A stretch of 64,000 nucleotides of DNA from Candidatus Dadabacteria bacterium (GTDB taxonomy: Bacteria > Desulfobacterota_D > UBA1144 > Nemesobacterales > Mycalebacteriaceae). Location of the stretch: assembly GCA_026708565.1 (NCBI GenBank), contig JAPOUR010000002.1, positions 49,131 to 113,130 of the forward strand, given 5' to 3'. Every line of letters begins with the position of its first letter. The stretch's first letter is position 1. The notes beneath the pieces are model-generated. The model made no database searches. It had not been told where the DNA came from and saw only the letters and a list, made by a program, of their open reading frames with translations. This document shows, piece by piece, positions 11,369 to 63,811 of the stretch. Made by a program: the position numbers and the translations under genes.

Positions 11369-11399
11369 CGGCGCGCGCCTGAACACCTGACCTGAAACA

Positions 11400-13499: not shown

Positions 13500-13595
13500 T
13501 GTTCCGTCCTTGTGAGGTTGCGGAAAAACCGGTTAATCTGTCGTTGTAATCGGTATGGATTTTGTTCTGAACTCAACCGGGGAGAGGGGCGCAGT

Positions 13596-15326: not shown

Positions 15327-15392
15327 TTTCGCTTTCAGGGTCGGTTTTGTTATAATAGGGTGGCGATTACGCGCCACAGGGAGGTTTTTTTA

Positions 15393-15929: not shown

Positions 15930-15936
15930 GTTTCCG

Positions 15937-16884
15937 CTACCACTGGAAAACCCTGTAGAGAAACAGCCCGTATAGGATGAGCAGGGCGGCCCCCGCTCCC
16001 CTGCCTATGGTTGCGCCCTTTTTCATAAACGGCAGGGCGACCAGCGACATGGCGGCGGCAAACGGCATCTGAAATCCCGGCGCGTCCGCGTCCACCGAAA
16101 GCGGGGCGGCGGTTGCGGTAATCCCCAGAATCACTATGTTGAACAGGTTGCTTCCGGCGATGTTTCCGATTGCGATTGAGTTCTCCCTCTTTGCCACGGC
16201 GGCCATTGACGCCGCGAGTTCGGGAAGCGAAGTGCCAACGGCGACCGCGCTCGCCCCGATGACCAGTTCGGGGACGCCCGCGCCGCGCGCGATGCCGGTT
16301 GCCCCCTCAACAATCAGGTCGCTCCCCAGCGCGAGCGCGGCAAGCCCCGCAAGTGTGGAGACCAGCACGATGCCGATGCCGCCCGAAACGGCGGGGATGT
16401 CCGTGACGGTTCCATCAGTGATGGGTTCGTTTTTGTTTGCCTGCCTCAGGTAAAGAGCGATTATCAGGGGCAAAAGCAGAGCGGTTACCGCCGCCCCTTC
16501 CGGGCGGCTGAGGTTGCCGTCCGCGCAAAGCGGTATCAGGGCCGCCATAAACAGGGCCGCCGCCGCTCCTTCCGCCCTCAGCCCCTGAGGCGTCCGCAAC
16601 GGCAGGACGACCGCGCTCAAGCCTAATATCAGGCATACGTTTGCCACATTGCTGCCCGTTATGTTGCCCGCCGCGATGTCCGCCGAGCCTTTAAGCGCGG
16701 CTATGAGGCAGACGATGAGTTCGGGCAGAGATGTTCCGATTGCGATAACGGTAAGCCCCGCGACAACGGGATGAACGCCCACCCTTTTTGCCAGAGCGGA
16801 CGCGCCGCTGACGGCGGAGTCCGCGCCGACCCACAGGCCGGTAATGCCGATTGCGAGAATGGTGATTTCAAAAAGCGCGGGCAT
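15937..16884 (-). CDS. Ca2+/Na+ antiporter (CaCA / YrbG family)
   Basis: Two alpha-repeat motifs, GTSLPELIVCLIAALKG...GNITGSNVANVCLILG and GTSLPELAASMAAV...GNIAGSNLFNIV. ORF trimmed to the ATG at 16884 (MPALFEITIL). Confidence 0.9.
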   Translation of the reverse strand: MPALFEITILAIGITGLWVGADSAVSGASALAKRVGVHPVVAGLTVIAIGTSLPELIVCLIAALKGSADIAAGNITGSNVANVCLILGLSAVVLPLRTPQGLRAEGAAAALFMAALIPLCADGNLSRPEGAAVTALLLPLIIALYLRQANKNEPITDGTVTDIPAVSGGIGIVLVSTLAGLAALALGSDLIVEGATGIARGAGVPELVIGASAVAVGTSLPELAASMAAVAKRENSIAIGNIAGSNLFNIVILGITATAAPLSVDADAPGFQMPFAAAMSLVALPFMKKGATIGRGAGAALLILYGLFLYRVFQW

Positions 16885-17119: not shown

Positions 17120-18850
17120 ATGCGTCTTTTATTCAAACCGCGCGACCAGAAATATGTGGGGACGGGGGACTTGCCCTTCGGAACCTTTGATGACACTTCC
17201 CAGTGGCATCCCGTTACAAAGAACCTTGAGAAAGGAGCCGAACAGTTTCCCGGCAAAGACATGTTCAAAGTGGGCGACAGGGACGGCAACATCGTCAAAA
17301 CCTTTTCCTACGGGGAGACCAACGAACTTGCCAACAAGGTGGCAAACACGCTTATAAAGGATTTCGGCGTCAAAAAGGGCGACAAGGTGGGTATGTATAT
17401 GCTCAACTGCGCCGAATATGTTCTCACCATCATCGCGGCGCACAAAACCGGCGCCGTGCAGGTTCCCGTGAACAAAGACGAAAAGGGCGAGCGCCTCGCC
17501 TATGTCATCAACTACTCCGGGATGAAAGTGCTTGTCATAGACGGCGGCAGCATTCCCTACCTTGAAGAGATAGCGGACTCGCTTGAAGCCCTTGAAGCCA
17601 TCTTCGTTGTGGCGGAGGGGGACGAGAAAATTCCCGAAAGCATAGGAAAGGTGAAAGTTCACCCCTTTTCGGTTTTTGACGGCGGCGACACCGCCAACCC
17701 CGGCGTGGATGTTTCCGTGGACGACATGGAGAGATGCATGTTCACTTCGGGCACGACCGGAATGCCCAAGGGCGTGGCAAGAGACCACGGCGGCGTTGTT
17801 ATGACGGTGCGCTCCTACATACAGCAGCAGGGAATACGGGGCGATGACACCCTGATGAGCGTTCTGTCGCTCGGGCACGCAAACGCGCAGGTTATGTGCC
17901 TTTTCAGCGCCATGGGCGCGGGCGCGACGGCGGTTTTCTTCCCGCGCTTTTCCGCCTCCAATTTCTGGAAATGGGCCGCCGGTTGCGGAGCAACTTCCAT
18001 CAACATGCTCGGCGCGGTCGCCGAATACCTGTGGTCCGCCCCGCAAAGCGAATGGGACGCCAAACACAAGGTCAGAATAATGCTTGGCTCTCCCGCCCCC
18101 AGAGACCTTGACCAGTTTCAGCAGAGGTTCAATGTGAGGGTTATAGACGGATACGGCTCAACGGAGATGGGAATGGTTCTCTGGAAAGACCCCGAAGACC
18201 ACCGCCCCGGCTCCTCAGGCTTCCCGATGGAGGGATACCACGTGGAGCTCAGAAAGCCCGAAAGCGCGGACGAGCCGGTGAAATACTTCTGGGACCCCTC
18301 AGACAACATCACCCCGCCCGATGAGGCAAAGGGGCTTCTGTTCATAAAGCCGCTTGTGCCCCACACCACTCTCAACGAATACTTCAAGGATGAAAGGCGC
18401 ACAAGGGAAGCGTTTGACGATGAAGGATTTTTCAACTCCGATGACCTTTTCGCAAGGGGCATTGACGGCAGATACTACTTTGCCGGCAGATACAGCAGGA
18501 TAAGGGTTTCGGGCGAAAACGTTGACCCCGTGGCCGTTGCCGACGAGGCGATGCAGTATGCGGCGATTCAGGAGGCGATAGCCGTGGGTCTGCGCCTTCC
18601 CAACGTTTCGGATGACGAAATCAAACTGTGCCTGACTCTGAAGAAGGGCGAAACCTTTGACCCGGCGGAGTTCTGCAAATGGATGGCCGAAAGGGTTATG
18701 GTTGCCATGGTTCCGAGGTTCATTGAGGTTTACGAAGACGGGTTTCCCGTAACCGCCACCCAGAAGGTCAAGGTTGCCGAGATAAAAGAGATAACCGACA
18801 AGACATGGGACAGGAATGAGGCGGGGCTCAAATTTAGTGCGAGAAAGTAA
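17120..18850 (+). CDS. AMP-dependent synthetase/ligase (acyl-CoA synthetase family), paralog 2
   Basis: Aligns along its full length with 13596..15326, sharing MxLLFxPRDxKYxGxGDLPFGxFDDT, FTSGTTGMPKGV and GYGSTEMG. AGGAGG SD. Confidence 0.85.
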   Translation: MRLLFKPRDQKYVGTGDLPFGTFDDTSQWHPVTKNLEKGAEQFPGKDMFKVGDRDGNIVKTFSYGETNELANKVANTLIKDFGVKKGDKVGMYMLNCAEYVLTIIAAHKTGAVQVPVNKDEKGERLAYVINYSGMKVLVIDGGSIPYLEEIADSLEALEAIFVVAEGDEKIPESIGKVKVHPFSVFDGGDTANPGVDVSVDDMERCMFTSGTTGMPKGVARDHGGVVMTVRSYIQQQGIRGDDTLMSVLSLGHANAQVMCLFSAMGAGATAVFFPRFSASNFWKWAAGCGATSINMLGAVAEYLWSAPQSEWDAKHKVRIMLGSPAPRDLDQFQQRFNVRVIDGYGSTEMGMVLWKDPEDHRPGSSGFPMEGYHVELRKPESADEPVKYFWDPSDNITPPDEAKGLLFIKPLVPHTTLNEYFKDERRTREAFDDEGFFNSDDLFARGIDGRYYFAGRYSRIRVSGENVDPVAVADEAMQYAAIQEAIAVGLRLPNVSDDEIKLCLTLKKGETFDPAEFCKWMAERVMVAMVPRFIEVYEDGFPVTATQKVKVAEIKEITDKTWDRNEAGLKFSARK

Positions 18851-37714: not shown

Positions 37715-37844
37715 CGCTCAAAATCGGCTTAAAACTATACTATTGGCAAGGGCGGTCAAGGAAAGGGTTGTTTGCGGGTTTGACATTAAAGCGCCGGTTT
37801 TATGTTATAGTTCAGACGGGCCGGTTGCCCCGGAGGAAAAGACT

Positions 37845-38792
37845 ATGACGGAGCGTTTGAAATTTGCGGTAAAGAGTTTTCGGAGTCGCCCGCCGCTGAC
37901 GGCGCTGGCGGTTGCCGTTGTTCTTTCCCTTTCCGCCTGCGGCGGGGGAGGGGGAGGCGGAGGCGGCGCCGGTGGCATCGGACCCACTTCCCTCGGCTTG
38001 GGTTCCGGCGCGGCGGTCAGACAGAGAGCCGCTGGAAATGACCCCGTTCCCGGCAGTGTTACTCAGGGGAGCCGCGCTACTTCCGGAATAACCGCCGATA
38101 CGGTTCAGTATCAGGGAGGCAGTATTGTGGCAGATGGCGTAGGCACTCTTGCCCCCGCATCCGTCTCCATTCCCGAACTTCCCGGGGCGCAAGTTTTCAT
38201 GCACGAGCGCGCGATTGCCGTTGCCATTTCGGGTTTTGACGCTCAAGATGTGCCTCAGTATGAGAATACCGACCCTCTGCTGTTTGGATTCTGGGCTTAC
38301 GAGGTGACTCCAGACAACATAATATGGGGGGCGTTTGCTGACGGGCTGAGCGTTAGTAAAACTCCCGCCGCCACCATTACCGCTGCTACAGGTAGCGCAA
38401 CATATCAGGGAAAGACACTGGCCGCTTATGAAAACATTGGCGGTCAAGGAGATTCCGGTATGGCAACGGCGGACGTGAATCTTCTTGTACAATTTGGGGG
38501 TAGTCCTACGGTCGGCGGAACTATAGACAACCTCATAGACATCTCGAACAACATGGGTGTGCCCGGGCAGATACTTCTTGGGGCGGCCTCAATTGACCGC
38601 ACCGTTGACGGAGGATTTTTCAAGGGTGAAACCTCCGGACCCGATAATGTTAGAGGAAAATGGGGCGGCCAGTTTTTCGGTACGGAATACCAATACATCG
38701 GAGGCACTTGGGGCGCCAGTTTCCGCGATGAGGATGGCGTTTTTTCCGCAGCCGGGGCTTTCAGCGCTACAAAGCAACCCCCTACGGAATAA
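37845..38792 (+). CDS. surface-lipoprotein candidate with TbpB-like C-terminal beta-barrel domain (Slam substrate-like)
   Basis: ATG at 37845 after GGAGGAAAAG. Lipobox LSLSAC followed by a Gly-rich linker. The C-terminus GSATYQGKTLAAY...ATADVNLLVQFGGSPTVGGTIDNL...GGFFKGETSG...GKWGGQFFGTEYQYIGGTWGASF resembles the TbpB_B_D / Lipoprotein_5 barrel consensus (ATYxG...VDF...G.I...G.F.G...G.FYG..A.E.GG.F). Confidence 0.6.
   Translation: MTERLKFAVKSFRSRPPLTALAVAVVLSLSACGGGGGGGGGAGGIGPTSLGLGSGAAVRQRAAGNDPVPGSVTQGSRATSGITADTVQYQGGSIVADGVGTLAPASVSIPELPGAQVFMHERAIAVAISGFDAQDVPQYENTDPLLFGFWAYEVTPDNIIWGAFADGLSVSKTPAATITAATGSATYQGKTLAAYENIGGQGDSGMATADVNLLVQFGGSPTVGGTIDNLIDISNNMGVPGQILLGAASIDRTVDGGFFKGETSGPDNVRGKWGGQFFGTEYQYIGGTWGASFRDEDGVFSAAGAFSATKQPPTE
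37894..37942. repeat. 49-nt exact repeat, copy 1 (lipoprotein signal peptide coding)
   Basis: cgctgacggcgctggcggttgccgttgttctttccctttccgcctgcgg is identical at 40214-40262. Weaker similarity extends ~25 nt further upstream. Confidence 0.9.
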
Positions 38793-38808
38793 AATCCGCG
38801 CGCCCGTT

Positions 38809-40128
38809 TTGTTGACCCGCGCAATACCCGCCTTTCTGTTTTTTCTCGCTCTTTTTCCGGCAATGCCCGCGCCCGCCTTTGCGGACGCCGTGCCTTTGGA
38901 GGCCGAATCCCTCAACTCAGCCCGCGCCGCTCTTTCCGGCGGCGATGCGGAGGACGCCCTCCGCATTCTGGACTCTCTTGACCCCGGCGGGGTTGCTGAC
39001 CGCAGAACCTTTGATTTTGTGCGCGGTCTTGTCCTCATGGAACTTGGCCGCCCGAAGGAGGCGGTTGACTCCTTCAAATCGGTGGTCAACCGCGAGCCGT
39101 GGCTGCTCCGCCCGCGTCTGGAACTTGCCCGCGCCTATTTTGCCTCTGGCGATTACCCGAACGCCAAAAATCAGTTTGAGGCCGTTCTCTCCGAAGACAT
39201 TCCCCCGGCGGTGCGCGGAAACATAGAAAAATTTCTGTCGCTGATGAAAGAGCGGCGTTCGTGGACTGTGGACTTTGCAATAGGGGTTGCCGAAGACAGC
39301 AATATAAACGAGTCCACTTCCCTGCAAACCGTTGTCATCGGCGGGTTGCCCTTCCGGCTGAGCGATGATTCCCGCGAGACCGGCGGCAGGGGGGTGAACT
39401 TTTTTCTCGGCGGCTCATGGCGGACGGGTTTCGGGGGGCTTGGCGGCGGAGACACCCTTGGCGTTTCGGCGCGGCTGTGGGTCAAGGATTACGGGGGCGA
39501 GAGTTTTGACCAGCACACGTTTGAGGTTTTTCCGAACTATGTAAAGAGTCTTGGCGGCGGGGAGGTTGCCGCCGGTCCCGTATTCTGGCGCAGTCTGCTT
39601 GCGGGGCGTTTATACGAGCAGTCAATCGGGGGCAGGGTGGAAGGCAATCTGCCGCTCTCCCCGGTCTGGCGGCTGTCCGCCGGGGCGGAGGTCATAAATC
39701 ACGAGTTCCCGCGCAATTCCCTTCAGGACGGCAACAGCGCGGGGGCAAGATTTTCCCTTACCCGTTTGTTTGGCATTCGCACTGCCTCAACTCTTCTTGC
39801 CGCCGCGGTCTTACGCCGCGCCGGGGCGGGGCATCTTGAATACGATGAGTTTTCCGCCGGAAAGGGTTTTTACCGCGAAATGCCCATGGGATTCACCGTC
39901 TCCCTGAGGGCAGACGCCGCGAGGCGCGTTTACAGGGAGGCGGACCCCTTTTTCGGAGACCGCCGCGAGTGGACGGGGTATTTTTCGGCGAGCATGGCAA
40001 ACAGGCTGCTTTCATACCGGGGGTTTTATCCGAGGGTGACGGTCATCCATACGAGGCGCGATTCATCGGCGGACTTTTACGACTACACGAGAACGCGCTT
40101 TGTTTTTGATATAACGCGGAGGTTTTGA
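38809..40128 (+). CDS. Slam-like outer-membrane protein (N-terminal TPR plus DUF560 beta-barrel)
   Basis: A TTG start at 38809 gives the signal peptide (M)LTRAIPAFLFFLALFPAMPAPAFA/DA. TPR region ...ELARAYFASGDYPNAKNQFEAVLSEDIPPAVRGNIEKFLSLM, then VDFAIGVAEDSNINEST. Alternating barrel strands and a terminal ...FVFDITRRF (C-terminal Phe). Lies adjacent to the TbpB-like lipoprotein. Confidence 0.65.
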   Translation: MLTRAIPAFLFFLALFPAMPAPAFADAVPLEAESLNSARAALSGGDAEDALRILDSLDPGGVADRRTFDFVRGLVLMELGRPKEAVDSFKSVVNREPWLLRPRLELARAYFASGDYPNAKNQFEAVLSEDIPPAVRGNIEKFLSLMKERRSWTVDFAIGVAEDSNINESTSLQTVVIGGLPFRLSDDSRETGGRGVNFFLGGSWRTGFGGLGGGDTLGVSARLWVKDYGGESFDQHTFEVFPNYVKSLGGGEVAAGPVFWRSLLAGRLYEQSIGGRVEGNLPLSPVWRLSAGAEVINHEFPRNSLQDGNSAGARFSLTRLFGIRTASTLLAAAVLRRAGAGHLEYDEFSAGKGFYREMPMGFTVSLRADAARRVYREADPFFGDRREWTGYFSASMANRLLSYRGFYPRVTVIHTRRDSSADFYDYTRTRFVFDITRRF

Positions 40129-40161
40129 AAGGGTTGATTTGCTGGTATCCTGATTATTGTC

Positions 40162-40374
40162 ATGACAATGCGTTTGAAAGACTTCACAGCAAAGAGTTTT
40201 CCGGGTCGCCTGACGCTGACGGCGCTGGCGGTTGCCGTTGTTCTTTCCCTTTCCGCCTGCGGAGGCGCGGGGAGCGGGGAAGGCGCGAGATTCGGGACGC
40301 CTCCCGAAACTCTTGTTCGCCCCGATATAGGAATTGGCGGCCACATCAAGCGTGTCGCGCCCGCTTTGCGTTAG
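40162..40374 (+). pseudogene. truncated second surface-lipoprotein gene (signal peptide plus ~35 codons only)
   Basis: MTMRLKDFTAKSFPGRLTLTALAVAVVLSLSACGGAGSGEG... has an N-terminus paralogous to 37845..38792 but stops after 70 codons. No barrel domain follows; the AT-rich island begins downstream. Confidence 0.55.
40214..40262. repeat. 49-nt exact repeat, copy 2
   Basis: Identical to 37894-37942. Confidence 0.9.
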
Positions 40375-40567
40375 GGGAGTGGCGCGACACGGGCGCGTGG
40401 CCGGGGTGTGATGGTTGGTTGTGCGGCGCGCAGTTTATCTGCGGGTTTTTGAGACTGCGGGAGGCTGTGCGGGGTTTGTGCTACACTAAAGCAAACAACA
40501 TGTTGCTTGCTAGGGGAATAATGAATAGTAGATGTCTCAATAATCTTTGTAGTAAGGTAGATGAGTT

Positions 40568-41773
40568 GTGAGTCAAATCGAAGAAGTGACTATTACGAGC
40601 CTTGAAGACTACCTGTTAGAGGTAAAGAAACTTTACATGGAAGAGACGGAAAAAGCCGAAAGTGCACCTCGCTTTATTTATCGTGGACAAAAAAACGCGA
40701 GTTGGAAACTACAAAGCAGTGCTACTGTTAGGCTTCTTAATGAGAGCGAATTAGAATTCAAATACCCATTTCAGATTTCCTCCTTGTTTTTAGGCTATTT
40801 AGATCAGATGGTAGACGAAGTTCGCTTGACATATCCTAATATCTACAAAAATCTTGATCATTTGGAGATAATGGCACACTTGCAACATAATAGAGTGGCA
40901 ACAGGATTGATAGATTTTACATACAGTTCCTTGGTGGCTTTGTGGTTTGCTTGCGAGGAAGACAATCAAAATGAAGAAGGTAAGTATAATGATGGGAAAG
41001 TGTTTTGCATGAATGTAAACTACAAGGATAGCAAGATAGAAGAGATTAGGACTAAAGACGAACTAAAAAAGGATGTAGAAAGTTTTTTTAAAAATGATGG
41101 TAGATGGTATATTTGGCAACCAGCAATTGGGAATCCGAATGTAGAGACTCAACGCCTAACTATGCAACAATCGGTATTTCTGTTTGGAATGCCGAGTGTT
41201 GAAGAAAAAATGTTAGCGAAAGTTTTTATTGTGCTCGCAGACAACAAGAGAAACATGCATCAAGAATTGGAATATATGGGAATTACTGAGAAAAACCTCT
41301 TTTCTGACTTGGCGGGATTTATAGAGAGGAATAGTAAAACAAAATACTACAATAAAAGACTGGGTGTCCACTACTATGACAAGAAACTCAAAAGAAAAAG
41401 AAGTTTTACCAATCTCTATCAAAGAGGAATGTTTTACCTTGCTTTAGAAGAATATAAAAAGGCAATTGAAGATTTCACCGAAGCGACTGGCCTTGTAGAT
41501 GTTGAGAAATATCAGAAGAGTATTGCTTATGTAGGTAGCGGCTGGGCCAAGAGCCGATTAGATATGGTTGCAGAGGCAGTAATGGATTATACGGAAGCAA
41601 TCAGGCTCAATTCCCAAAATGACGGAGCGTACACCAATCGCGGCTGGCTTCAGTATAAATTAGGAAAGCACGCAGAAGCAATAAACGATCTGAAAAAATC
41701 TCTTGAAATCAATTCCGGAAATTTGACTGCATCTAACATTCTTAAGAGAATAGAAGGAGAACTGAAAATCTAA
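40568..41773 (+). CDS. FRG-domain protein with C-terminal TPR repeats
   Basis: FIYRGQKNASWKLQSS (the F/YRG motif), MAHLQHNRVATGLIDFTYSSLVALWFACEE and RLTMQQSVFLF match my recall of the FRG domain (PF08867). The C-terminal ~120 aa form 3 TPR units (YQRGMFYLALEEYKKAIEDFTEA..., AYTNRGWLQYKLGKHAEAINDLKKSLEIN). GTG start at 40568. Confidence 0.65.
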   Translation: MSQIEEVTITSLEDYLLEVKKLYMEETEKAESAPRFIYRGQKNASWKLQSSATVRLLNESELEFKYPFQISSLFLGYLDQMVDEVRLTYPNIYKNLDHLEIMAHLQHNRVATGLIDFTYSSLVALWFACEEDNQNEEGKYNDGKVFCMNVNYKDSKIEEIRTKDELKKDVESFFKNDGRWYIWQPAIGNPNVETQRLTMQQSVFLFGMPSVEEKMLAKVFIVLADNKRNMHQELEYMGITEKNLFSDLAGFIERNSKTKYYNKRLGVHYYDKKLKRKRSFTNLYQRGMFYLALEEYKKAIEDFTEATGLVDVEKYQKSIAYVGSGWAKSRLDMVAEAVMDYTEAIRLNSQNDGAYTNRGWLQYKLGKHAEAINDLKKSLEINSGNLTASNILKRIEGELKI

Positions 41774-41980
41774 AGGTTGCATTGATGACAGACTTTGTTT
41801 CAGACATCTTGTTTAGAGTTGCTTATTTGCAGAATGAGCCATTGTAGTGGTGATGAGCACACACAACTGACAAATTCCATGTACTATCCTCACCTCTTTA
41901 ATGTAGGGGGATTATGTGGTGAACCTCTATGTGGTTTTATCCGTTTGGCTTAACGAAAAAGTTGGAATCTATGTATTAAA

Positions 41981-42023
41981 GTTGCCAAACCCATTTGACA
42001 CTTTGGCAACTGTAATATATAGT
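41981..42023 (+). promoter_or_regulatory. sigma70-type promoter (TTGACA-17-TATAGT) overlapped by a 9-bp inverted repeat
   Basis: TTGACA at 41995-42000, a 17-nt spacer, then TATAGT at 42018-42023. The inverted repeat gttgccaaa (41981-41989) / tttggcaac (42002-42010) straddles the -35. GAAGGAGG SD at 42038-42045 precedes the ATG at 42054. Confidence 0.65.
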
Positions 42024-42053
42024 GTTGTTATCTTGATGAAGGAGGTAATTCAG

Positions 42054-42254
42054 ATGACAACATACGAATTACATAAACGCGCTCTTGGAGCGACCAGTTT
42101 AGTAGCCTCTTGTTTGGCAAAGACAAATGACCTTCGCCGTGTAGCTATTACCGAGAATGATCGGAGCAAGTCCGCCGAGATAGCGGGCGAACTTTCGGAC
42201 TTGGCTGACACTCTCAAGAAGACAGCAAACGCGATTGCTGACAGGGCGGAATAA
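42054..42254 (+). CDS. small (66 aa) predicted all-helical protein, first gene of the island operon
   Basis: ORF 41916 trimmed to the ATG at 42054, which has a strong SD. MTTYELHKRALGATSLVASCLAKTNDLRRVAITENDRSKSAEIAGELSDLADTLKKTANAIADRAE. No family recognised. Confidence 0.5.
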   Translation: MTTYELHKRALGATSLVASCLAKTNDLRRVAITENDRSKSAEIAGELSDLADTLKKTANAIADRAE

Positions 42255-42257
42255 GCA

Positions 42258-42632
42258 ATGCCAGAAAACAAGAGCGTTTACGGATTTTTGCGCCGGTTTC
42301 CCAACGAGGCGGCGGCGCGGGAGTTCTTTGAAAATCTGAAATGGGGAGACGAGCCGCATTGTCCGCATTGCGGTTGTTTTGAAGTGTCGGAAGTGAAGCA
42401 TAAATCTATGCCTTATCGCTGTCGGGGTTGCCGGAGGTACTTCAGCGTCCGCACAGGGTCGGTTCTGGAGAGTAGCAAGGTCTCTCTCCACACATGGCTA
42501 ATGGCGATGTATCTGGTTGCTGAGTCCAGCAAAGGGGTTTCTTCCGTCCAGTTGGCGAAATGGCTTGGCGTTCAGCAAAAGACCGCTTGGTTTATGGCTC
42601 ATCGGATGAAGTATGGAGAGTTGACACAATGA
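42258..42632 (+). CDS. IS1595-family transposase N-terminal Zn-ribbon/HTH module only (DDE domain absent)
   Basis: FPNEAAAREFFENLKWGDEPHCPHCGC...YRCRGCRRYFSVRTGSVLESSKVSLHTWLMAMYLV...LAKWLGVQQKTAWFMAHRM matches the Zn_Tnp_IS1595 (PF12760) region. The ORF ends where the DDE_Tnp_IS1595 domain would begin. Its stop overlaps the next ATG (ATGA at 42629-42632). Confidence 0.65.
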   Translation: MPENKSVYGFLRRFPNEAAAREFFENLKWGDEPHCPHCGCFEVSEVKHKSMPYRCRGCRRYFSVRTGSVLESSKVSLHTWLMAMYLVAESSKGVSSVQLAKWLGVQQKTAWFMAHRMKYGELTQ

Positions 42633-43453
42633 AAACGGCAACGGCAAAAAAAGACCTGTTCAAAATAGACGCGCCTTTTGAGGATGTTGCGCGGGCTGTT
42701 GTGAACGCACCCCCGCCGAAGAAAAGCAAAACGGTTTTCAGCAAGGCACGCGACATTGTTTCCCCGTCCTTTGTCATTCCCAAAGGCGTTAAGACAAACG
42801 CTCCGAACGTAAATGACGGCCTCATCCTTCTTGCGGAGTTGCCCGCTGGAGTTGTGCCGGTTGTTGTCTTTGACCCTCAATATAGGGGCGTTCTGGATTA
42901 TCAAGGGTTTGGTAATGAGGGAGACAAGCGGGGGCGCGCCCGTGCCGAACTCCCACAAATGGGAGAGGATACAATCACGGAGTTTATTCACGCAATCAGC
43001 CGGGTTCTCATTCCGTCTGGTCATCTCTTTTTGTGGGTTGACAAGTTTCATCTCTGTAACGGTATAGACCCCTGGATTTCCGGGACCGACCTGTTTACCG
43101 TTGATATGGTTGTCTGGCATAAGGAACGGCTCGGAATGGGCTACCGGACGCGCCGGACTTGCGAGAGTCTGGTCGTGATACAGAAAGCCCCGAAACGCGC
43201 TAAAGGTGTTTGGAAAATCCACAACATTCCCGATGTATGGTCGGAGGCGAAGGAAAACAGCGGACACACCCACCGCAAGCCCATAGGGTTACAATCGCGC
43301 CTGATTGAGGCCGTAACAAATGAGGGCGACTTTGTTGTTGACCCTGCCGCAGGCAGTTATTCTGTTCTCAAGTCCTGCCAAGAGGTAGGGCGAAACTTTA
43401 TAGGTTGCGACATCGTTGGCACGGTTAAAAAAGGCAAAACCCGGACGGACTGA
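42629..43453 (+). CDS. beta-class (N6A/N4C type) DNA methyltransferase, motif IV variant DPQY
   Basis: Motif IV VVVFDPQYRG precedes motif I FVVDPAAGSYSVLKSCQEVGRNFIGCDI, with HTHRKPIGLQSRLIE in between. This is the N6_N4_Mtase (PF01555) order IV->I. Confidence 0.7.
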   Translation: MKTATAKKDLFKIDAPFEDVARAVVNAPPPKKSKTVFSKARDIVSPSFVIPKGVKTNAPNVNDGLILLAELPAGVVPVVVFDPQYRGVLDYQGFGNEGDKRGRARAELPQMGEDTITEFIHAISRVLIPSGHLFLWVDKFHLCNGIDPWISGTDLFTVDMVVWHKERLGMGYRTRRTCESLVVIQKAPKRAKGVWKIHNIPDVWSEAKENSGHTHRKPIGLQSRLIEAVTNEGDFVVDPAAGSYSVLKSCQEVGRNFIGCDIVGTVKKGKTRTD

Positions 43454-44093
43454 CGGCGGATATACGCGCTTGTTCGGCGTTCCTGAACTTGGTGCGCTGA
43501 TTTCGCAAGTTCATTCCACAAGCATATCGGCAGGAAGGGAACTTGAGAGTATCATCCTTGAGCGTTCCCGCACAATCTCTGACCTTGATGCCTTCCTTGC
43601 TCAAGACATCATTACTGCGGGCGTCTCTGTTGCCTCAAAAGAGGCAATCAAGCAATGCGAGACAATAGATTACCCCGGAGCAGAGCCGGACTTTATGATC
43701 TTCCGGCGCAAGGGAACAGCTCAGGAATGTCTTGTTCTTGAACTCAAAGACGGAGATGCTTTTGACACAAAGAAAGCCGCCGGGGAACGCGCAAACCTTC
43801 ATAGGTTCATCCAGTATCTCGGAACGCGCATTCCTTGGACTGTTGACATGCGCTTTTGTTGCTTCAATCAGCCAGACAAAGACAAAATCCGCGCGGGGTT
43901 CAAAAACAAAATCAGCGAGGCCCAAGCAATGACCGGCTCTGAACTTTGCGGTCTTCTCAATCTTGACTACGCAGAAATCGTGAGAGAGCGGGAAAAAGAC
44001 CAGCCAGAAAACCTTACTGTCTTTGTTGAAAAACTCCTAGGTATTGAGGCGGTCAAATCGGAGATTGTAAAGAGTGGCAACTTTAATACATGA
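43416..44093 (+). CDS. putative PD-(D/E)xK nuclease (restriction endonuclease candidate)
   Basis: GAEPDFMIFRRKGTAQECLVLELKDG provides a PD...ExK arrangement. It lies immediately downstream of, and overlapping, the methyltransferase gene. There is no in-frame ATG near the 5' end, so the start is TTG at 43416 or TTG at 43470 (uncertain). Confidence 0.5.
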   Translation: MARLKKAKPGRTDGGYTRLFGVPELGALISQVHSTSISAGRELESIILERSRTISDLDAFLAQDIITAGVSVASKEAIKQCETIDYPGAEPDFMIFRRKGTAQECLVLELKDGDAFDTKKAAGERANLHRFIQYLGTRIPWTVDMRFCCFNQPDKDKIRAGFKNKISEAQAMTGSELCGLLNLDYAEIVREREKDQPENLTVFVEKLLGIEAVKSEIVKSGNFNT

Positions 44094-44136
44094 TTCCCAG
44101 TTTCGTAATCCAGTAACAATCTCTTATTCCCCCTCA

Positions 44137-44889
44137 TCAATTCACATACTCAAACTGCGGATAAACAAAACTCCCCTTCATCCACACCGCCCATGTGGGG
44201 TCGGCTATCGGTTTCAGTCTGTGCAACGGATGCCCTTCGGGCGCGGTTATCTCTATCTTCGGGTCGCTTATAGCCCTTGTTGAGCCGAGATAGGGAATAG
44301 GGTGTTTCACCACCCTGCCGTTTTTCAGCCCGAAATAGTTCAAATGCCCGCTTTCAGGGTTTTTAAGCCTTCTGCTTTTCAACTTCGCCTCGGCCTTTAT
44401 CAGCCGCTTGCCGCCTATTCTGAGGGACGCTTTCACCTTTCCGCCCCTTACATAAGCCGCCGTCCTGCCCGCCTCGGCGGGAATGCCCGCGCTCTCGGCA
44501 AACTTCCTCATCTTCGGTGAACTGTTGAAATAGTGGACGAAATACCTGCCCGGATAGCCGTTTTCCCTGTCCATTACATAGGAGTCATGCCCGTCTATCT
44601 CAATGGCAAGATATGTGAGATTGTAAGCCCCGAAGCCCGAAGTCTGCGTTTCCTCCGGCACGGTATACATGTTGATAAACACATGCCCGTTCGGATGCGG
44701 CTTGAGACCTCCGGGAAGAAGTTCCTCAAGGGCAACCGGGTCAGCCTTGTAGGCCGCCATGAACATCCACGCATCCTGAACAAGTTGCGGCGCCGGAAGA
44801 GGGTCGGGCGTTTTCCCCGCGCCCGCAATTGAAAGCGGAACGGCTACCGCCACCAGAACCGCTACAACAACTCTTTTCAAAAATCTCAT
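44137..44889 (-). CDS. secreted ADC-fold-like protein lacking the catalytic Lys-Lys
   Basis: ORF trimmed to the ATG at 44889. Signal peptide MRFLKRVVVAVLVAVAVPLSIAGA. The region RYFVHYFNSSPKMRKFAESAGIPAEAG aligns to ADC YLHMMYLDNEPAIAVGRELSAYPKKLG, but KK is replaced by AE. Confidence 0.45.
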   Translation of the reverse strand: MRFLKRVVVAVLVAVAVPLSIAGAGKTPDPLPAPQLVQDAWMFMAAYKADPVALEELLPGGLKPHPNGHVFINMYTVPEETQTSGFGAYNLTYLAIEIDGHDSYVMDRENGYPGRYFVHYFNSSPKMRKFAESAGIPAEAGRTAAYVRGGKVKASLRIGGKRLIKAEAKLKSRRLKNPESGHLNYFGLKNGRVVKHPIPYLGSTRAISDPKIEITAPEGHPLHRLKPIADPTWAVWMKGSFVYPQFEYVN

Positions 44890-57827: not shown

Positions 57828-60251
57828 ATGAGCTCCGAAAAAATCTCCAAAGACATGCCGATGCTTCCCCTGAGGGATGTCGTTATGTTTCCGCACATGG
57901 TCGCCCCCCTGTTTGTGGGGCGCGCGCGCTCAATCAAGGCGATTGAAGAGGCCGAGAATGCCGACAAGGAAATCTTCCTGTGCACCCAGATGGACGCGAG
58001 TGAAAACGAGCCCAAAACTGAAGACATTTACTCCACGGGCGTCATAGGCACGGTCGCCCAGATGCTCCGCCTGCCGGACGGAACGGTGAAGGTTCTGGTT
58101 GAGGGCAAAAAGAGGGGGCGCATAGAGCAATACATTGAGACATCGGACTTCTACAAGGTCAGGGTGTCGGTCATTGAAGAGTCGCGGGGCGCAGAAAGCG
58201 TTGAGGGGGACGCGCTCAGAAGGTCGGTTCTCAAGGCGTTTGAGGGCTACATAAAACTCAACAGAAAAATACCGGGCGAGGTCTTCTCAACCGTTTCGGC
58301 AATTGAAGACATGGGACGCCTTTCGGATACGGTGGCCTCCCACCTGAACCTCAAAATTACCGACAAGCAGGAACTGCTTGAGACCGGAGACCCCGAAGAG
58401 AGGATGAAAAAACTGCACGAGAAGATGCAGGAAGAGGTGGAGATTCTTGAGATAGAAAAGAGGATAGGCAAGCGGGTGCGCAGGCAGATGGAGAAATCCC
58501 AGAGGGAGTACTATCTGACCGAGCAGATGAAGGCGATACAGAAGGAACTCGGCGAAAAGGACGACATGAAGTCCGATGTTCAGGAGATTGAGGCGAAACT
58601 CAAGGACAAGGGGCTTCCCAAAGAGGTTGAGGAGAGGGTCAAAAAGGAACTGAAAAAACTCAAGATGATGCCTTCAATGTCCGCCGAGGCAACCGTTGTC
58701 AGAAACTATGTTGACTGGATAATGGACCTCCCGTGGACCAAGGAGCACACCAAAGACCGCCTGGACATAAAAGAGGCGAGGAGCATACTTGAAGAAGACC
58801 ACTACGGCCTCAGAGACCCCAAGGACAGAATTCTTGAATACCTTTCGGTGCGGACGCTCACCGAGAAGATTCGCGGCCCCATACTTTGCTTTGTGGGTCC
58901 TCCGGGGGTGGGAAAAACCTCCCTTGCCAAGTCCATAGCCCGCTCAATGGGGAGGAAGTTCGTCCGTGTCTCCCTTGGCGGGGTGCGGGACGAGTCCGAG
59001 ATTCGCGGCCACAGGAGAACCTACATAGGCGCGCTTCCCGGAAAAATCATTCAGGGAATGAAAAAGGCGGGCACAATCAACCCTGTGTTCCTGCTTGACG
59101 AGATAGACAAACTGGGGATGGACTTCCGGGGCGACCCGGCGTCCGCCCTGCTTGAGTGCCTTGACCCGGAGCAGAACTCCAACTTCAACGACCACTACAT
59201 AGAGGCGGATTACGACCTGTCCAAAGTTCTGTTCATAGCCACGGCGAACATCACTCACACCATTCCGTGGGCGCTTCAGGACAGGATGGAGATCATCCGC
59301 ATACCGGGCTACACCGAGGATGAGAAACTGCACATCGCCAAAAAGTTTCTGCTCGGCAAGCAGACAAAAGAGCACGGGCTGGAGGATTCCCTGACGGGTG
59401 TCGCCGACACCGCGCTTCTTGAGATAATCCGCCGCTACACGCGGGAGGCCGGGGTGCGCACGCTTGAGCGCGAGATAGCCAAACTTTGCAGAAAGGTGGC
59501 AAGGAAGGTCGCCGAGACCGAAGGCGGCAAGTCCCGCTCCAAAGTCAGGGTAACGGCAAAGAACATCGGCGGCTATCTGGGCGTTCCCAAGTTCAAGCAC
59601 GGCGAGATAGAAGAAGATGACCAGATAGGGGCGGTAACCGGCCTTGCGTGGACCGAGGTGGGCGGCGAGTTGCTCACCATAGAGGTTACGATAGTTCCCG
59701 GAAAGGGGGGGTTCACGGTTACGGGAGTCAAGCCGGAGGGCGAAAACGTGATGAAGGAATCCGCCCGCGCGGCCATGAGTTACGTGCGCTCGCGCGGCGC
59801 GCAGCTGGGGCTGGACAGGGATTTCTACCAGATGGTTGACATACACATTCACGCCCCGGAGGGCGCGACCCCCAAGGACGGCCCCTCCGCCGGGATAGCG
59901 ATTGTTACCGCCATTGTGTCCGCCCTGCTCAAAAAACCGGTCAGGCGCGACATTGCGATGACCGGCGAGATAACGCTTCGCGGGCGGGTGCTGCCCATAG
60001 GCGGGCTGAAGGAGAAAATCCTTGCCGCCCAGCGCGGAAAGGTCAAAACCGTGCTTCTCCCGCAGGAGAATGAGAAAGACCTTGAGGACGTTCCCGCGGA
60101 GGTTAAGAAAGGTGTTGAGATTAAACTTGTTGAGCACATGGACAAGGTTCTTGAGGAGGCAATAATTTCCGATGAGCCGTTGCTCAAGAGTTTTGTCTCC
60201 CCGTTTGAAGCCAAGGGGGCCATCGGGGTTTCCGGGACGAAAATGAACTGA
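57828..60251 (+). CDS. lon: ATP-dependent Lon protease
   Basis: [15 protein letters not shown] (LON N domain), GPPGVGKTS (Walker A) and [14 protein letters not shown] (catalytic Ser). ORF 57756 trimmed to the ATG at 57828, which has a GGGAGAG SD. Confidence 0.95.
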
Positions 60252-61297
60252 TGAAAGCGGTGGTTTACAACAAACCGGGCGATGTGAGCGTTGAAAATGT
60301 CGCCGACCCCGCCATAAAAGACGGGCGCGATGCGATAGTGCGTGTTACAAAGAGCGCCGTTTGCGGCTCAGACCTTCATTTCTACAGGGGGGTTGTCCCC
60401 ATGGATGAGGGTTTTGTCGTGGGGCATGAGTTCATGGGCGTTGTTGAAGACGCCGGAAAGGACGCAAGGGGGCTGAAAAAGGGCGACAGGGTTGTGGCTC
60501 CGTTCTGGGTCAGTTGCGGGGGTTGCGCAAACTGCCACAACCATTTTCCGACTTCATGCACGGGGGGCGGCGGTTGCTTTGGTTTCGGCGAGGCGTTCGG
60601 GGGATACGGCGGCGGGCAGGCGGAGTTTGTCCGGGTGGCGCTTGCCGACACCACGCTTGAGAAAGTTCCCGAAAGTGTTGAGGACGAGAAACTTCTTTTT
60701 CTCGGTGATGTTTTCTCAACGGCGTATTTCTGCGCCGAGTGGGCGGACATCAAACCCGGCGGTGTGGTGGTGGTTTTCGGAGACGGCCCCCTCGGGCTTC
60801 TTGCGACCGCTTCGGCGCGGCTTTTCAGTCCTTCAAAGGTGATAACTGTCGGCCACCATGATTACCGGCTGGGCATGGCAAAGAGCGCGGGGGCGGATTT
60901 TGTCATCAACTCTTCAAATGAAGACCCGGCGGAGAGGGTTATGGAGATTACCGGCGGCCTCGGCGCAGACTCCGCGTGCGAGTGCATCGGTTCGGAGTCC
61001 GCTCTTCTTGAAACCTTCAAGGTTGTCCGTCCGGGCGGCGTAATATCGTTTATCGGTCTGTTTCTTGAGCCTGTGGCAATACCGATGCTTGATTTTTATC
61101 TTAAAAATTTCACTCTGCGCGGCGGGGTCTGCCCGGCGAAGAATTACATCTCAAAACTCCTTCCTCTCGTTGAGAGCGGGAGGGTTGACCCGTCTTTCAT
61201 CATCTCCCACGACTTGCCGCTTTCCGACACTCCGAAGGGGTATGAACTTATGGACAAGAGGATGGAAAATGCGGTCAAGGTCGTTTTGACCCCCTGA
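60251..61297 (+). CDS. zinc-dependent alcohol/formaldehyde dehydrogenase family (MDR)
   Basis: VCGSDLHFYRG, GHEFMGVV, a structural Zn motif CGGCANCHNHFPTSC, and GDGPLGL. Confidence 0.85.
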   Translation: MKAVVYNKPGDVSVENVADPAIKDGRDAIVRVTKSAVCGSDLHFYRGVVPMDEGFVVGHEFMGVVEDAGKDARGLKKGDRVVAPFWVSCGGCANCHNHFPTSCTGGGGCFGFGEAFGGYGGGQAEFVRVALADTTLEKVPESVEDEKLLFLGDVFSTAYFCAEWADIKPGGVVVVFGDGPLGLLATASARLFSPSKVITVGHHDYRLGMAKSAGADFVINSSNEDPAERVMEITGGLGADSACECIGSESALLETFKVVRPGGVISFIGLFLEPVAIPMLDFYLKNFTLRGGVCPAKNYISKLLPLVESGRVDPSFIISHDLPLSDTPKGYELMDKRMENAVKVVLTP

Positions 61298-61354
61298 TGA
61301 GGGTGTTTTTCCGGAATAACTCCTGTTTTCCCGTTTTATGTATAATTTGGCGTT

Positions 61355-61552
61355 ATGGAATACAAGGTTGTTTTACAGCATTCCGAAGAGGGATACAGCA
61401 TTTCCTGCCCCGGTCTTCCGGGTTGCGTCTCACAGGGTGAAACGGAGGCGGAGGCGCTTGCAAACATACGCGAGGCGATTTGTGACTATCTGGCGGTTGT
61501 GGATGAGAATTGTAAAGGGAAATACATCCGCAAAGTTGAAGTCGCCGTTTAG
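61355..61552 (+). CDS. hicB: HicB-family (UPF0150) antitoxin-like protein, N-terminal domain only
   Basis: MEYKVVLQHSEEGYSISCPGLPGCVSQGETEAEALANIREAICDYL is a typical HicB N-domain. 65 aa with no DNA-binding domain. TATAAT (61341-61346) lies 8 nt upstream and there is no SD. Confidence 0.7.
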   Translation: MEYKVVLQHSEEGYSISCPGLPGCVSQGETEAEALANIREAICDYLAVVDENCKGKYIRKVEVAV

Positions 61553-61554
61553 CA

Positions 61555-61654
61555 ATGCCGAAACCCACTGGGACGAATTCATAAGGGAAGTGCCGCTGGA
61601 CAGATAGGGGAAAATCCGGGGCAGAGACTTCCCATACCTGACCAAATGGGGTAA
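61555..61654 (+). pseudogene. possible degraded hicA remnant
   Basis: ATG at 61555 gives MPKPTGTNS-stop, a HicA-like MPK start. The +1 frame continues RIHKGSAAGQIGENPGQRLPIPDQMG-stop, faintly resembling HicA ..KGSH....PG..v.IP. It is far shorter than an intact HicA. Confidence 0.25.
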
Positions 61655-61725
61655 CTTTCAAGTGAAAACGGCTGGAAGAATACTGGTTATGCGGCTTTCT
61701 GTAGCACTTTCAGGGTATTAGTAAA

Positions 61726-62733
61726 ATGGCGATTTGGGTGGCAAGGGCTGGAAAACATGGGGGAGAAGAAGACCTCGCTCTTGAGCAAGGACGGGCGTTC
61801 ATTGGTTGGACTCATCTCGGCGATTTGTCCGACATACATACACGAGAACAAATACGCGAACTCTTGGAGAAAAAATATCCAGATTGGAACTCCTATAAAG
61901 TGGGGAACCATACGGGGCAGATATTTAGGTTCATCAAGGAGATTCAAGTTGGTGATTTGCTCGCGTTACCCCTAAAAAAACGACCTACAATTGCGTTTGG
62001 AGAGGTTGTCGGTGACTATGAGTATATAGGTGGTAATCCCGAAAGTGCTCATCACAGTAGAAAAGTAAAATGGAAAAGTGAGCCAATTCCACGGAGTGCT
62101 TTTGATAAGGACCTTCTCTATGCCTTTGGCTCCCTATTAACTGTCTTTCGTGTGAACAAAAACAAGGAAGATAGAATAAAAGCGGTCATAGAGGGAAAGC
62201 CACAGCCAGAGGAAGAGACTGATAATACAGGGGATGAAGAGCAGGCACTTCCTGATTTGGCACAGTTGGCACATGATCAAGTCAGCGATTTTATCGGTTA
62301 CAAATTCAAAAGTCATCGCATGGAAGATTTGGTTGCTGAAGTTTTGAAAGCTCAAGGTTTCGAAGTTCGCCCCAATCCGAGAAAGGGGTCCGATGGCGGT
62401 GTAGATATTCTGGCAGGACGAGGGTCAATGGGATTTGATGAACCTCGTCTTTGCGTTCAGGTGAAGTCAGGTGATACGCCGATTAACTCTACGACCTATA
62501 ATGAATTGAAAGGTGTTATGCAGAAATTTGGTGCCACGCATGGGCTCTTGGTCTCATGGGGTGGTTTTAATCGCAATGTGGAGGAGGAAGCCAAGCGCGA
62601 TTTTTTCAATATCCGCTTGTGGAATGCGGAAGATCTTGTCAATGAAATTCAGGATGTTTACTCTAACCTTCCAAAAGAGATTCAAGCCGAGCTACCTATG
62701 CAACAAATCTGGCTGTTGGTGGATGAGGATTGA
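61726..62733 (+). CDS. Mrr-like (Mrr_cat) restriction endonuclease with COG4127-type N-terminal domain
   Basis: C-terminus GSDGGVDILAG...RLCVQVKSGDTPI...GLLVSWGGF provides a D...QxK PD-(D/E)xK core. N-terminus MAIWVARAGKHGGEEDLALEQGRAFIGW. ~47% GC on a counted sample line. Confidence 0.7.
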   Translation: MAIWVARAGKHGGEEDLALEQGRAFIGWTHLGDLSDIHTREQIRELLEKKYPDWNSYKVGNHTGQIFRFIKEIQVGDLLALPLKKRPTIAFGEVVGDYEYIGGNPESAHHSRKVKWKSEPIPRSAFDKDLLYAFGSLLTVFRVNKNKEDRIKAVIEGKPQPEEETDNTGDEEQALPDLAQLAHDQVSDFIGYKFKSHRMEDLVAEVLKAQGFEVRPNPRKGSDGGVDILAGRGSMGFDEPRLCVQVKSGDTPINSTTYNELKGVMQKFGATHGLLVSWGGFNRNVEEEAKRDFFNIRLWNAEDLVNEIQDVYSNLPKEIQAELPMQQIWLLVDED

Positions 62734-62779
62734 ATCTTCATGCTAGACTGTGAAATCAGTTTTGCAAGTTTAACCCCGA

Positions 62780-63811
62780 CTACAAAATCCTTTTCTGCAT
62801 TCCCGAAGGCGTTTCCATTCCCAGATGACTGTAGGCGAGCGGCGCGGCCTTTCTTCCCCTCGGGGTTTTTTCAAGCAACCCGCACCTGAGCAGAAACGGC
62901 TCATACACCTGCTCTATGGTGTCTCTGTCTTCGCTTACTGTGGCGGCGATGGTTTCCACGCCCACGGGGCCGCCGCCGAACTTGACGATGATGGCCTCAA
63001 GTATGGCGCGGTCAAGCCCGTCAAGGCCCATGGTGTCAATCTCAAGCATCTCAAGACAGGCGGTCGCCTCTTTCTCGCCGATGTTGCCGTCCGCCTTCAC
63101 AAGGGCGTAGTCCCGCGCGCGGCGGAGAAGCCGGTTTGCCACCCTCGGCGTCCCCCGCGACCTCTCGGCTATGCGCGCGGCGGCGGCGGCGTCTATCTCA
63201 ACGCCCATTATGCGCGCCGAACGCTTTATGATGGTCTCAATCTCCGCGCCTTCGTAATACTCCAGCCGCAACTCCATTCCAAAACGCGAATGAAGCGGGG
63301 AGGTCAGCAGCCCGGTTCTGGTGGTCGCCCCGATGAGCGTGAACGGCTCAAGGGTTATCTTCATTGAACGGGCGGACGGGCCCTCGCCCATGAGAAGGTC
63401 TATGCTGAAATCCTCCATTGCGGAGTAAAGATATTCCTCAACTATCCTGTTGGTGCGGTGGATTTCGTCTATGAAAAGAACATCCCCCGCGCCGAGGCCG
63501 GTCAGCATGGCGGCAAGGTCTCCCGTTCTCTCAAGCACGGGGCCCGATGTCTGGTGAAGCTCCGCCCCCAGTTCCGCCGCAACTATGCGGGCGAGAGTCG
63601 TTTTGCCAAGCCCCGGAGGGCCGCAGAGAAGAAGATGGTCCGCCGCCGCCTTTCTCTTTTTTGCCGCGCCGATGAAAACGGCCACTTTTTCCTTGCTCTT
63701 TTCCTGCCCCAGAAAATCACCCAGTTTCTCCGGGCGCAACCTCTCCTCGCCCGCCCTTTCAGACGCCTCGGCCTCCGGGCTAACCGCCCTGTTTTCCGTC
63801 TCCCCGCTCAT
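62780..63811 (-). CDS. ruvB: Holliday junction branch migration helicase
   Basis: RPEKLGDFLGQEK, Walker A GPPGLGKTTLA, FIDEIH and a RGTPRVANRLLRR sensor motif. Confidence 0.95.
   Translation of the reverse strand: MSGETENRAVSPEAEASERAGEERLRPEKLGDFLGQEKSKEKVAVFIGAAKKRKAAADHLLLCGPPGLGKTTLARIVAAELGAELHQTSGPVLERTGDLAAMLTGLGAGDVLFIDEIHRTNRIVEEYLYSAMEDFSIDLLMGEGPSARSMKITLEPFTLIGATTRTGLLTSPLHSRFGMELRLEYYEGAEIETIIKRSARIMGVEIDAAAAARIAERSRGTPRVANRLLRRARDYALVKADGNIGEKEATACLEMLEIDTMGLDGLDRAILEAIIVKFGGGPVGVETIAATVSEDRDTIEQVYEPFLLRCGLLEKTPRGRKAAPLAYSHLGMETPSGMQKRIL

Follow-up and report, generated by a model that had tools for sequence, protein, structure and literature searches.

A Type II restriction-modification pair on a probable, worn-out IS1595-family transposon beside a separately acquired FRG-TPR gene in a Dadabacteria genome

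A short run of co-oriented genes at 40480-44136 in a Candidatus Dadabacteria genome (assembly GCA_026708565.1, contig JAPOUR010000002.1) combines an FRG-TPR gene with two small open reading frames (ORFs), a DNA methyltransferase and a nuclease. The window, as the term is used here, is the whole stretch of 64,000 nucleotides that was analysed, and positions refer to it unless another locus is named; loci elsewhere carry L numbers. A sequence-only reading of this DNA had described the five genes as a single AT-rich island with defence-like content, acquired by an unclear mechanism. The present analysis points, with considerable confidence, to two separately acquired pieces at a turnover hot spot, in which the restriction-modification (R-M) genes sit on a worn-out IS1595-family transposon that replaced an earlier R-M system. 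The features that carry this interpretation are listed below.

About 40471-41965: block A, AT-rich (37.6% GC), with the FRG-TPR gene and the stub of an HNH R-M system.
40568-41773, plus strand: FRG-TPR gene, 401 aa, with the FRG domain at about aa 1-260 and a TPR array at about aa 262-400.
41796-41966 (about 170 nt), minus strand: HNH pseudogene stub, equivalent to residues 270-326 of an HNH restriction nuclease 338 aa long, with two in-frame stops.
41964-44098, plus strand: block B, 2135 bp, 50% GC, probable non-autonomous IS1595-family transposon with ORF2, a truncated transposase, the methyltransferase (M) and the restriction endonuclease (R).
41964-41987, plus strand: left terminal inverted repeat (IRL), GGAATCTATGTATTAAAGTTGCCA.
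41995-42023, plus strand: sigma-70-like promoter TTGACA-17-TATAGT, immediately inward of the left repeat and, at 11/12 matches, the top-scoring candidate in 40100-44400.
42004-42020: inner inverted copy of the repeat core, with two mismatches, within the promoter spacer.
42054-42254, plus strand: ORF2, 66 aa, a predicted helical orphan with a strong ribosome-binding site (AAGGAGG) 8 nt upstream of its ATG.
42258-42632, plus strand: ORF3, 124 aa, IS1595 transposase remnant consisting of the Zn-ribbon, the helix-turn-helix (HTH) and the last ~6 codons.
42629-43453, plus strand: M, Type II DNA methyltransferase, 274 aa, beta-class N6/N4 with a DPQY motif ahead of the S-adenosylmethionine (AdoMet) motif.
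43416-44093, plus strand: R, Type II restriction endonuclease of the PD-(D/E)XK type, 225 aa, with a 38-nt overlap with the 3' end of M and its last codons inside the right repeat.
44075-44098, minus strand: right terminal inverted repeat (IRR), reverse complement GGGAATCATGTATTAAAGTTGCCA.
44099-44130: joint of 32 nt between IRR and sequence shared with the allele L019, at the place where the remainder of the older R-M system was lost.

Composition already divides the region. The GC profile runs at 55-62% in the flanks, falls to 35-42% over 40400-42200 and lies at about 50-54% over 42200-44000. Taken as blocks, 40480-41970 has 37.6% GC and 41971-44091 has 50.2%, the latter mildly under the window mean of 56%. 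The drop that had suggested a single AT-rich island is therefore real, but the region is a mosaic of two compositional blocks. The sequence-only reading had also overlooked the inverted repeats that bracket ORF2, ORF3, M and R, together with the HNH stub on the minus strand.

The terminal repeats share a perfect core of 17/17 nt and match at 23/24 nt with one indel. Counting the inner copy, the window holds three matches to the repeat, against 0.02 expected by chance, and repeats of this type also occur in L004, L016, L018 and L022. Between them, ORF3 carries the Pfam domain Zn_ribbon_IS1595 (9e-10), and its alignment to the 280-aa transposase of L022 and the 304-aa transposase of L016 identifies it as a transposase minus a 468-nt in-frame internal deletion. 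As a deletion remnant, it matches only positions 1-47 of 215 of the NCBIfam IS1595 model and scores 45.7 bits, under the cut-off of 75, whereas the full-length comparators reach 196 bits (L016) and 157 bits (L022). The whole DDE domain is gone, and hence the window element cannot transpose by itself. The previous suspicion that this Zn-ribbon ORF derives from a transposase was correct, and the repeats give the R-M half what it had seemed to lack, a mechanism of acquisition by an IS1595-family transposon. The DNA just outside both ends (41950-41963 and 44099-44110) forms an imperfect repeat that is inverted, not direct, with TTAACGAAAAAGT on one side matched by AGTTTCGTAA when the latter is reverse-complemented; L022 (387-400 and 3002-3012) has it as well.

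Relatives of the element range from intact to fragmentary. In L016, whose nuclease is 80% identical, the intact transposase matches the IS1595 model over its full length, the M-R pair follows directly with 75% DNA identity to the window, and the element is bounded by perfect 24-nt repeats GGGAACTATGTATTAAAGTTGCCA and a perfect 8-bp duplication TAATGAAA. L004 has repeats of the L016 type around a transposase broken by stop codons, L005 keeps the last ~90 nt of the transposase, and L017 has the M-R pair alone. In L018, 9716-11835 corresponds to exactly 41969-44091 of the window at 97.1% over 2125 nt, a repeat-to-repeat unit that includes ORF2 and the 124-aa remnant. Its setting is unlike that of the window: a 1.2-Mb contig with a TIR/ThsB-like gene, HicB and argS to dnaE as neighbours. 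Beside the L018 transposon, 7606-9618 is AT-rich (37-39% GC) and encodes a 533-aa TIR/ThsB-like protein with nSTAND3 and a 135-aa ORF. This block parallels the FRG-TPR block of the window, and the two share no homology.

A metagenome scan with the nuclease alignment added 80 more distant loci, at 36-50% identity. In 67 of these 80 the nuclease gene is directly preceded by its cognate methylase, and most of the remaining loci are contig-limited. An IS1595 transposase precedes the pair directly and on the same strand in 8/33 metagenome loci, the denominator being those that extend for 1 kb or more on the 5' side of M. Two of these eight, L064 and L095, again display the order transposase-M-R, GGGAAYTATGTAT... 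repeats and perfect 8-bp duplications (AATATGAG in L064, CTTAATTT in L095). The arrangement transposase-M-R is thus no local accident but a mobile unit that recurs. Identities of transposase and cargo track each other at short range (for example 89/88/91% and 80/82/76%), and cargo swaps occur at long range.

The left end of the transposon abuts the remains of an older restriction system. The HNH stub, which is 63% identical to the HNH protein of L019 (tblastn, E 5e-17), is cut exactly at this end. L019 represents the same locus, with a left flank of 78% identity, an FRG-TPR gene of 94.5% nucleotide identity and an ADC gene end of 97%. Between FRG-TPR and ADC it holds, on the opposite strand and at ~40% GC, a 338-aa HNH nuclease, an N6_N4 methylase and an MT-A70 methylase. 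Its match to the window covers 40520-41824 at 94.5% and 41826-41965 at 85.7%, and homology breaks at 41965. The same locus thus exists without the transposon. L022 likewise represents this locus and carries the same insertion; its transposase has 280 aa, and its DNA is 86-90% identical to that of the window.

Comparison of these alleles shows a stepwise history. An AT-rich island with FRG-TPR and, on the opposite strand, an HNH nuclease and two methyltransferases was present first, a state kept in L019. An IS1595-family transposon with M-R cargo then, most probably by transposition, interrupted the HNH gene at codon ~270, and the remainder of the older R-M system was lost. The transposase decayed in stages, from 304 aa when intact to 280 aa in L022 and 124 aa in the window.

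The cargo carries all the sequence hallmarks of a Type II system, and its activity is predicted on that basis. M matches the PADLOC model MTase_II (PDLC03271, 3.4e-78) and Pfam N6_N4_Mtase (PF01555, 4e-17), and its relatives among PDB sequences include MboIIA, RsrI, DpnA and N4C methyltransferases. It differs from the L018 copy by 15 synonymous and two non-synonymous substitutions, a ratio of non-synonymous to synonymous rates (dN/dS) of 0.04. R matches REase_II (PDLC03487, 5e-45) and has 346 homologues. The family is invariant at P91-D92 and E109-L110-K111 (PD-x16-ELK) and conserved at the N-terminal residues A2, Y16 and R18, which supports the upstream TTG start at 43416. The AlphaFold2 model of R (pLDDT 90) gives a weak EcoO109I-like fold match (TM-score 0.49). 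Searches with R returned no match among PDB sequences and none in the phage collection, though the neighbours in L016 look phage-like.

Within the overlap of M and R, a run of six adenines (A6, 43421-43426) is A7 in L018 (~11170). There the C-terminus of the methylase is shifted (290 vs 274 aa) and the conserved N-terminus of the nuclease is lost. This difference could reflect inactivation of R or a phase-variable tract.

The FRG-TPR protein of block A matches Pfam FRG (1.8e-16) and TPR_1 (9e-17), as well as 14 models of the PADLOC candidate PDC-S15 (top 3.2e-25). The gene set resolves into an ordinary Type II R-M pair (MTase_II and REase_II) and an unrelated FRG protein (PDC-S15), an outcome that the sequence-only reading had itself listed as grounds for rejecting a single unit. 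The ORFs are co-oriented as described previously, the Pfam and PADLOC matches bear out the domain calls, and the combination indeed corresponds to no named defence system. Fusions of FRG and TPR recur in dozens of proteins at 41-47% identity. Comparison with L019 gives an overall dN/dS of 0.30, indicative of purifying selection, and 0.77 for the TPR half, where substitutions are few. The AlphaFold2 model is confident in the TPR part and reaches pLDDT 35-60 in the FRG part. The protein shares the FRG domain and a defence-island setting with PDC-S15 and other FRG-domain proteins, and differs in the fusion of FRG to a C-terminal TPR array. We know of no experimental defence phenotype for PDC-S15 or FRG-domain proteins. 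Previous work places the FRG domain in the ADP-ribosyltransferase superfamily, with a predicted role as an NADase effector (Iyer et al. 2022; PMC9503650). The fusion may thus be an independent single-protein defence candidate of the abortive-infection type, with TPR as sensor and FRG as predicted NADase effector, a proposal made with reserve.

At the left edge of block A (40471-40519), ~35 nt are present that L019 lacks, including the near-perfect palindrome AGCAAACAACATGTTGCTTGCT. This palindrome lies 60-80 nt 5' of the FRG-TPR start and may be an operator.

The wider setting also shows turnover and is described by three further features.

37715-44136: segment variable with respect to species-level relatives, between the nuoE-like and ADC-like genes, with lipoprotein, Slam, lipoprotein fragment and blocks A and B.
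40162-40374, plus strand: lipoprotein N-terminal fragment, 70 codons, with signal peptide, lipobox and Gly-rich linker.
40429-40453, plus strand: terminator-like hairpin and T-run, which closes the GC-rich Slam/lipoprotein block immediately before the GC drop.

The species-level relatives are Thermodesulfobacteriota metagenome genomes whose ADC-like proteins are 67-72% identical. In L006 and L007 the order glnD-OMT-cobA-ADC continues directly into nuoE-glyK, with ADC/nuoE gaps of 15 and ~300 nt, so that ADC and nuoE are adjacent and the site is empty. Hence the insertion point proposed earlier, at the truncated lipoprotein gene, used too narrow a reference: the N-terminal fragment is there as described, but these relatives are without the whole of 37715-44136. 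The Slam/lipoprotein cluster is absent from L006 and L007 and is therefore itself accessory. The fragment is paralogous to the beginning of another lipoprotein gene, which occupies 37845-38792 and precedes Slam, with 65% identity over aa 1-50 (tblastn) and 82-89% DNA identity over 99-124 nt, and no match beyond. The cluster of lipoprotein, Slam (SlipAM and TPR) and lipoprotein fragment spans 37743-40374 and has normal GC.

Other occupants are found at the same ADC-downstream junction. L015 has a Schlafen/AlbA_2-HATPase_c_4 protein there (11063-12475), and L008 a type I R-M system (HsdR-, HsdS-like) with an ImmA-like protein and other genes (10823-16389). The junction marks a defence hot spot in the clade. 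The view of the island as acquired, defence-like content stands, and horizontal acquisition is supported. Its right edge was also well placed, as the island ends 44 nt ahead of the point (44137) where the convergent ADC-like gene stops. No integrase was found in the 40480-44136 region, and scans of the window returned no tRNA and no Rfam family; the first two absences had been noted before, as had that of a flanking direct repeat. The strain-level contigs L105-L108 break at the island edge and reveal no empty site. L105-L107, from strains 99-100% identical in other samples, start within 25 nt of the right edge (44137-44159), in keeping with variation among strains, or with a break in the assembly, at the boundary. 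An exact look-up of the 266-aa ADC-like ORF found no record; gene callers use a 250-aa start.

The two small ORFs between the left repeat and M deserve separate treatment. ORF2 had been taken as a 112-aa frame with a GTG start and is better read as the 66-aa frame listed above, from the ATG behind the AAGGAGG site. In the window, L018 and L022 it separates the left repeat from the transposase; L016 and L004 lack it. Among 1.84 billion proteins, a single further representative cluster contains homologues, and profile searches gave no match to C-protein or HTH families. Relative to L018 its dN/dS is 0.39, in a mosaic pattern with a far more diverged N-terminal half. Length, ribosome-binding site and frame are kept across copies of 86-97% identity. 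The stop of ORF3 overlaps the start of the methylase (ATGA at 42629), and its comparison with L018 gives five synonymous changes and one non-synonymous change (dN/dS 0.05; ~2e-3 under neutrality).

At the left end, the -35 hexamer and the inner repeat are kept in five elements that are otherwise only 75-97% identical. No small HTH controller gene with C-boxes, the arrangement typical of C-protein control, was found 5' of R, and the sole palindrome is the repeat/inner-repeat pair at the promoter. IS1 offers a possible analogy. Its InsA product consists of an N-terminal Zn-finger/HTH part and acts as a repressor that binds at the ends of IS1 and turns down the promoter located in its left repeat; IS1595 is said to be related to IS1, reportedly in the title of a 2009 paper by Siguier, Gagnevin and Chandler. 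ORF3 corresponds to exactly the Zn-ribbon and HTH part, and the left repeat contains or adjoins the promoter. Differences lie in the origin of ORF3 by deletion and not by programmed frameshifting, and in the putative target of control, here an R-M operon. By this analogy, ORF3 may bind the repeats and the promoter as an InsA-like repressor, although this remains a tentative suggestion. A search for recurrent short Zn-ribbon forms upstream of R-M genes led to one test case, P0124, which was rejected as a split IS1595 transposase with no R-M genes nearby.

Several alternative explanations need to be weighed against this interpretation. Close packing and a common orientation would suit a single new multi-gene defence system acquired as a unit, as would the FRG-TPR gene adjoining R-M genes in both the window and L019, and the R-M copy of L018 beside another AT-rich NADase-type gene, the TIR protein. 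Yet the two halves differ in GC, with the transposon repeats and the HNH stub between them, and each half occurs elsewhere on its own. No FRG gene accompanies the R-M unit in L004, L005, L016, L017, L018 and the 80 metagenome loci. FRG-TPR accompanies a different R-M system in L019 and none of this kind in L020, and the partner genes beside the R-M copies in the window and L018 share no homology. All five genes stand together only in L001, L002 and L022, which are relatives at the same locus. The five-gene unit of the sequence-only reading thus comes apart, and a single system is very improbable. It is also highly unlikely that the 17-24-nt repeats are operator sites of an ORF2/ORF3 controller of a stationary R-M operon and not transposon ends. 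Perfect 8-bp duplications lie directly outside the repeats in L016, L064 and L095, a full IS1595 transposase is found inside them, homology between the window and both L018 and L019 starts and stops at them, and the right repeat of distant elements falls beyond the nuclease stop. This explanation draws on the conserved left repeat and inner copy, which flank or overlap the promoter, and on the position of the right repeat inside coding sequence, where coding alone could explain its conservation. A dual role of the repeats as transposon ends and operators is possible and forms part of the favoured interpretation.

For ORF2 and ORF3 the balance is much closer. There is about an even chance that ORF3 is a functionless pseudogene kept open for translational coupling to the methylase, and that ORF2 is a chance or selfish insertion. 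The excess of synonymous changes in ORF3, its in-frame deletion with retention of the whole DNA-binding part, and the preserved length, ribosome-binding site and frame of ORF2 with its dN/dS of 0.39 speak for function. On the other side, the transposase decays differently in every copy, the R-M pair does without either ORF in L005, L017 and Campylobacter plasmids, ORF2 is an orphan and P0124 is unrelated to R-M. A more ambitious combination would have ORF3 recruited as an InsA-like R-M controller through the repeat-embedded promoter, ORF2 as a new accessory factor, and a long-lived IS1595 lineage with dedicated M-R cargo and a preference for AT-rich targets, able to land in, knock out and replace rival R-M systems. 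As a whole, this combination is unlikely.

Some observations also weigh against the transposon history favoured here and against its regulatory extension. No target duplication or direct repeat surrounds the window copy (AAAAAGTT vs AGTTTCGT) or the L018 copy. For this reason, transposition into the exact window site follows from the HNH truncation point and is not seen directly. Later deletion of the remainder of the old R-M system, that is, of the right-hand target DNA, would account for the missing duplication at the window copy. The right repeat of L018 is without its outer 7 nt, and the arrival of that copy is thus unproven. Co-divergence of transposase and cargo is ambiguous, with a Mantel test at r = 0.53 (p = 0.009), a Spearman correlation short of significance and evident cargo swaps. 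The selection signal in ORF3 rests on just six substitutions. Furthermore, other copies do without the ORF3 protein, L004 through stop codons, L005 with only the last ~90 nt and L017 with none, and a regulatory role of ORF3 is therefore not required for the R-M pair.

On the favoured interpretation, in which the R-M pair rides on a decayed transposon, the element would work as follows. All four genes, from ORF2 and the truncated transposase to M and R, would be transcribed as an operon from the promoter in the left end, and the methylase-first order with overlapping frames would favour protection before cleavage. M would methylate host sites and R would cut unmethylated incoming DNA. Post-segregational killing may stabilise the element, which could move only if a full-length relative supplied transposase in trans for the intact repeats.

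Comparable arrangements exist in both transposon and R-M research. The IS1595-family transporter elements tISCpe8 and MTnSag1 carry passenger genes downstream of the transposase. Both tISCpe8 (Clostridium perfringens) and MTnSag1 (Streptococcus agalactiae) have 25-bp repeats (PMC5704250). The elements described here resemble such transporters in having a DDE transposase of the IS1595 type that begins with a Zn ribbon, repeats of ~25 bp and an 8-bp duplication, as seen in the relatives L016, L064 and L095. They differ in that the cargo is a Type II R-M pair in place of lincomycin resistance and oriT, and in that the window copy is without the catalytic domain and has an extra orphan ORF between the left repeat and the transposase. 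In Xanthomonas oryzae, Furuta, Abe and Kobayashi (2010) described a Type II R-M unit with 65-bp repeats, and a Neisseria gonorrhoeae R-M unit has 26-bp repeats, an 8-bp duplication and a degenerate transposase-like gene of COG3677 (PMC2853133). The same work describes allelic substitution of one R-M system by another at a locus and cites the IS1595 paper for R-M or M genes linked to insertion sequences (PMC2853133). R-M genes within imperfect inverted repeats and an 8-bp duplication are common to those units and the present ones. In contrast, M and R are Type IIP-like here, and intact autonomous relatives and a pre-insertion allele have been identified. At the enzyme level, M shares its motif order and N6_N4_Mtase domain with M.RsrI, M.MboIIA and DpnA, and R shares the PD...ELK motif and core fold with Type IIP PD-(D/E)XK enzymes. 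R has only the weak EcoO109I match as its nearest solved fold and no PDB sequence match, and the system has no C-protein gene.

Other parts of the window show further variation. A second low-GC islet (47-48%) occupies 61300-62750; its neighbours are an alcohol dehydrogenase gene (60251-61297) on one side and ruvB (62780-63811, on the minus strand) on the other. The islet encodes a 335-aa Mrr_cat nuclease that matches the PADLOC candidate PDC-S02 (1.6e-126), and the DNA of its small ORFs is 90-98% identical to the HicB-antitoxin region of L018 (6548-7031). As L018 matches at both the transposon and this islet, its genome has two or more accessory segments in common with the window. GC is also low (43.6%) in the 1-kb bin 8001-9000. 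Direct repeats of ~925 nt with 72% identity at 14201-15106 and 17722-18627 are probably paralogous genes.

The findings are modestly new in four respects: the series of copies from intact to decayed, the pre-insertion allele, the orphan ORF2 and a possible regulatory afterlife of the transposase N-terminus. What appeared to be a five-gene system is explained as an acquisition history, with no unit to chase. In its place stands a clean, allele-resolved case of a transposon-borne R-M system that lodged in the nuclease gene of a rival and replaced it, direct evidence that selfish R-M elements compete and displace one another. This case comes with a set of IS1595-type transposons that carry Type II R-M cargo, including intact copies with target duplications. 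ORF3 offers a test case for a leftover transposase DNA-binding domain as an R-M controller, and the FRG-TPR fusion is a single-gene defence candidate with a clear sensor-effector prediction.

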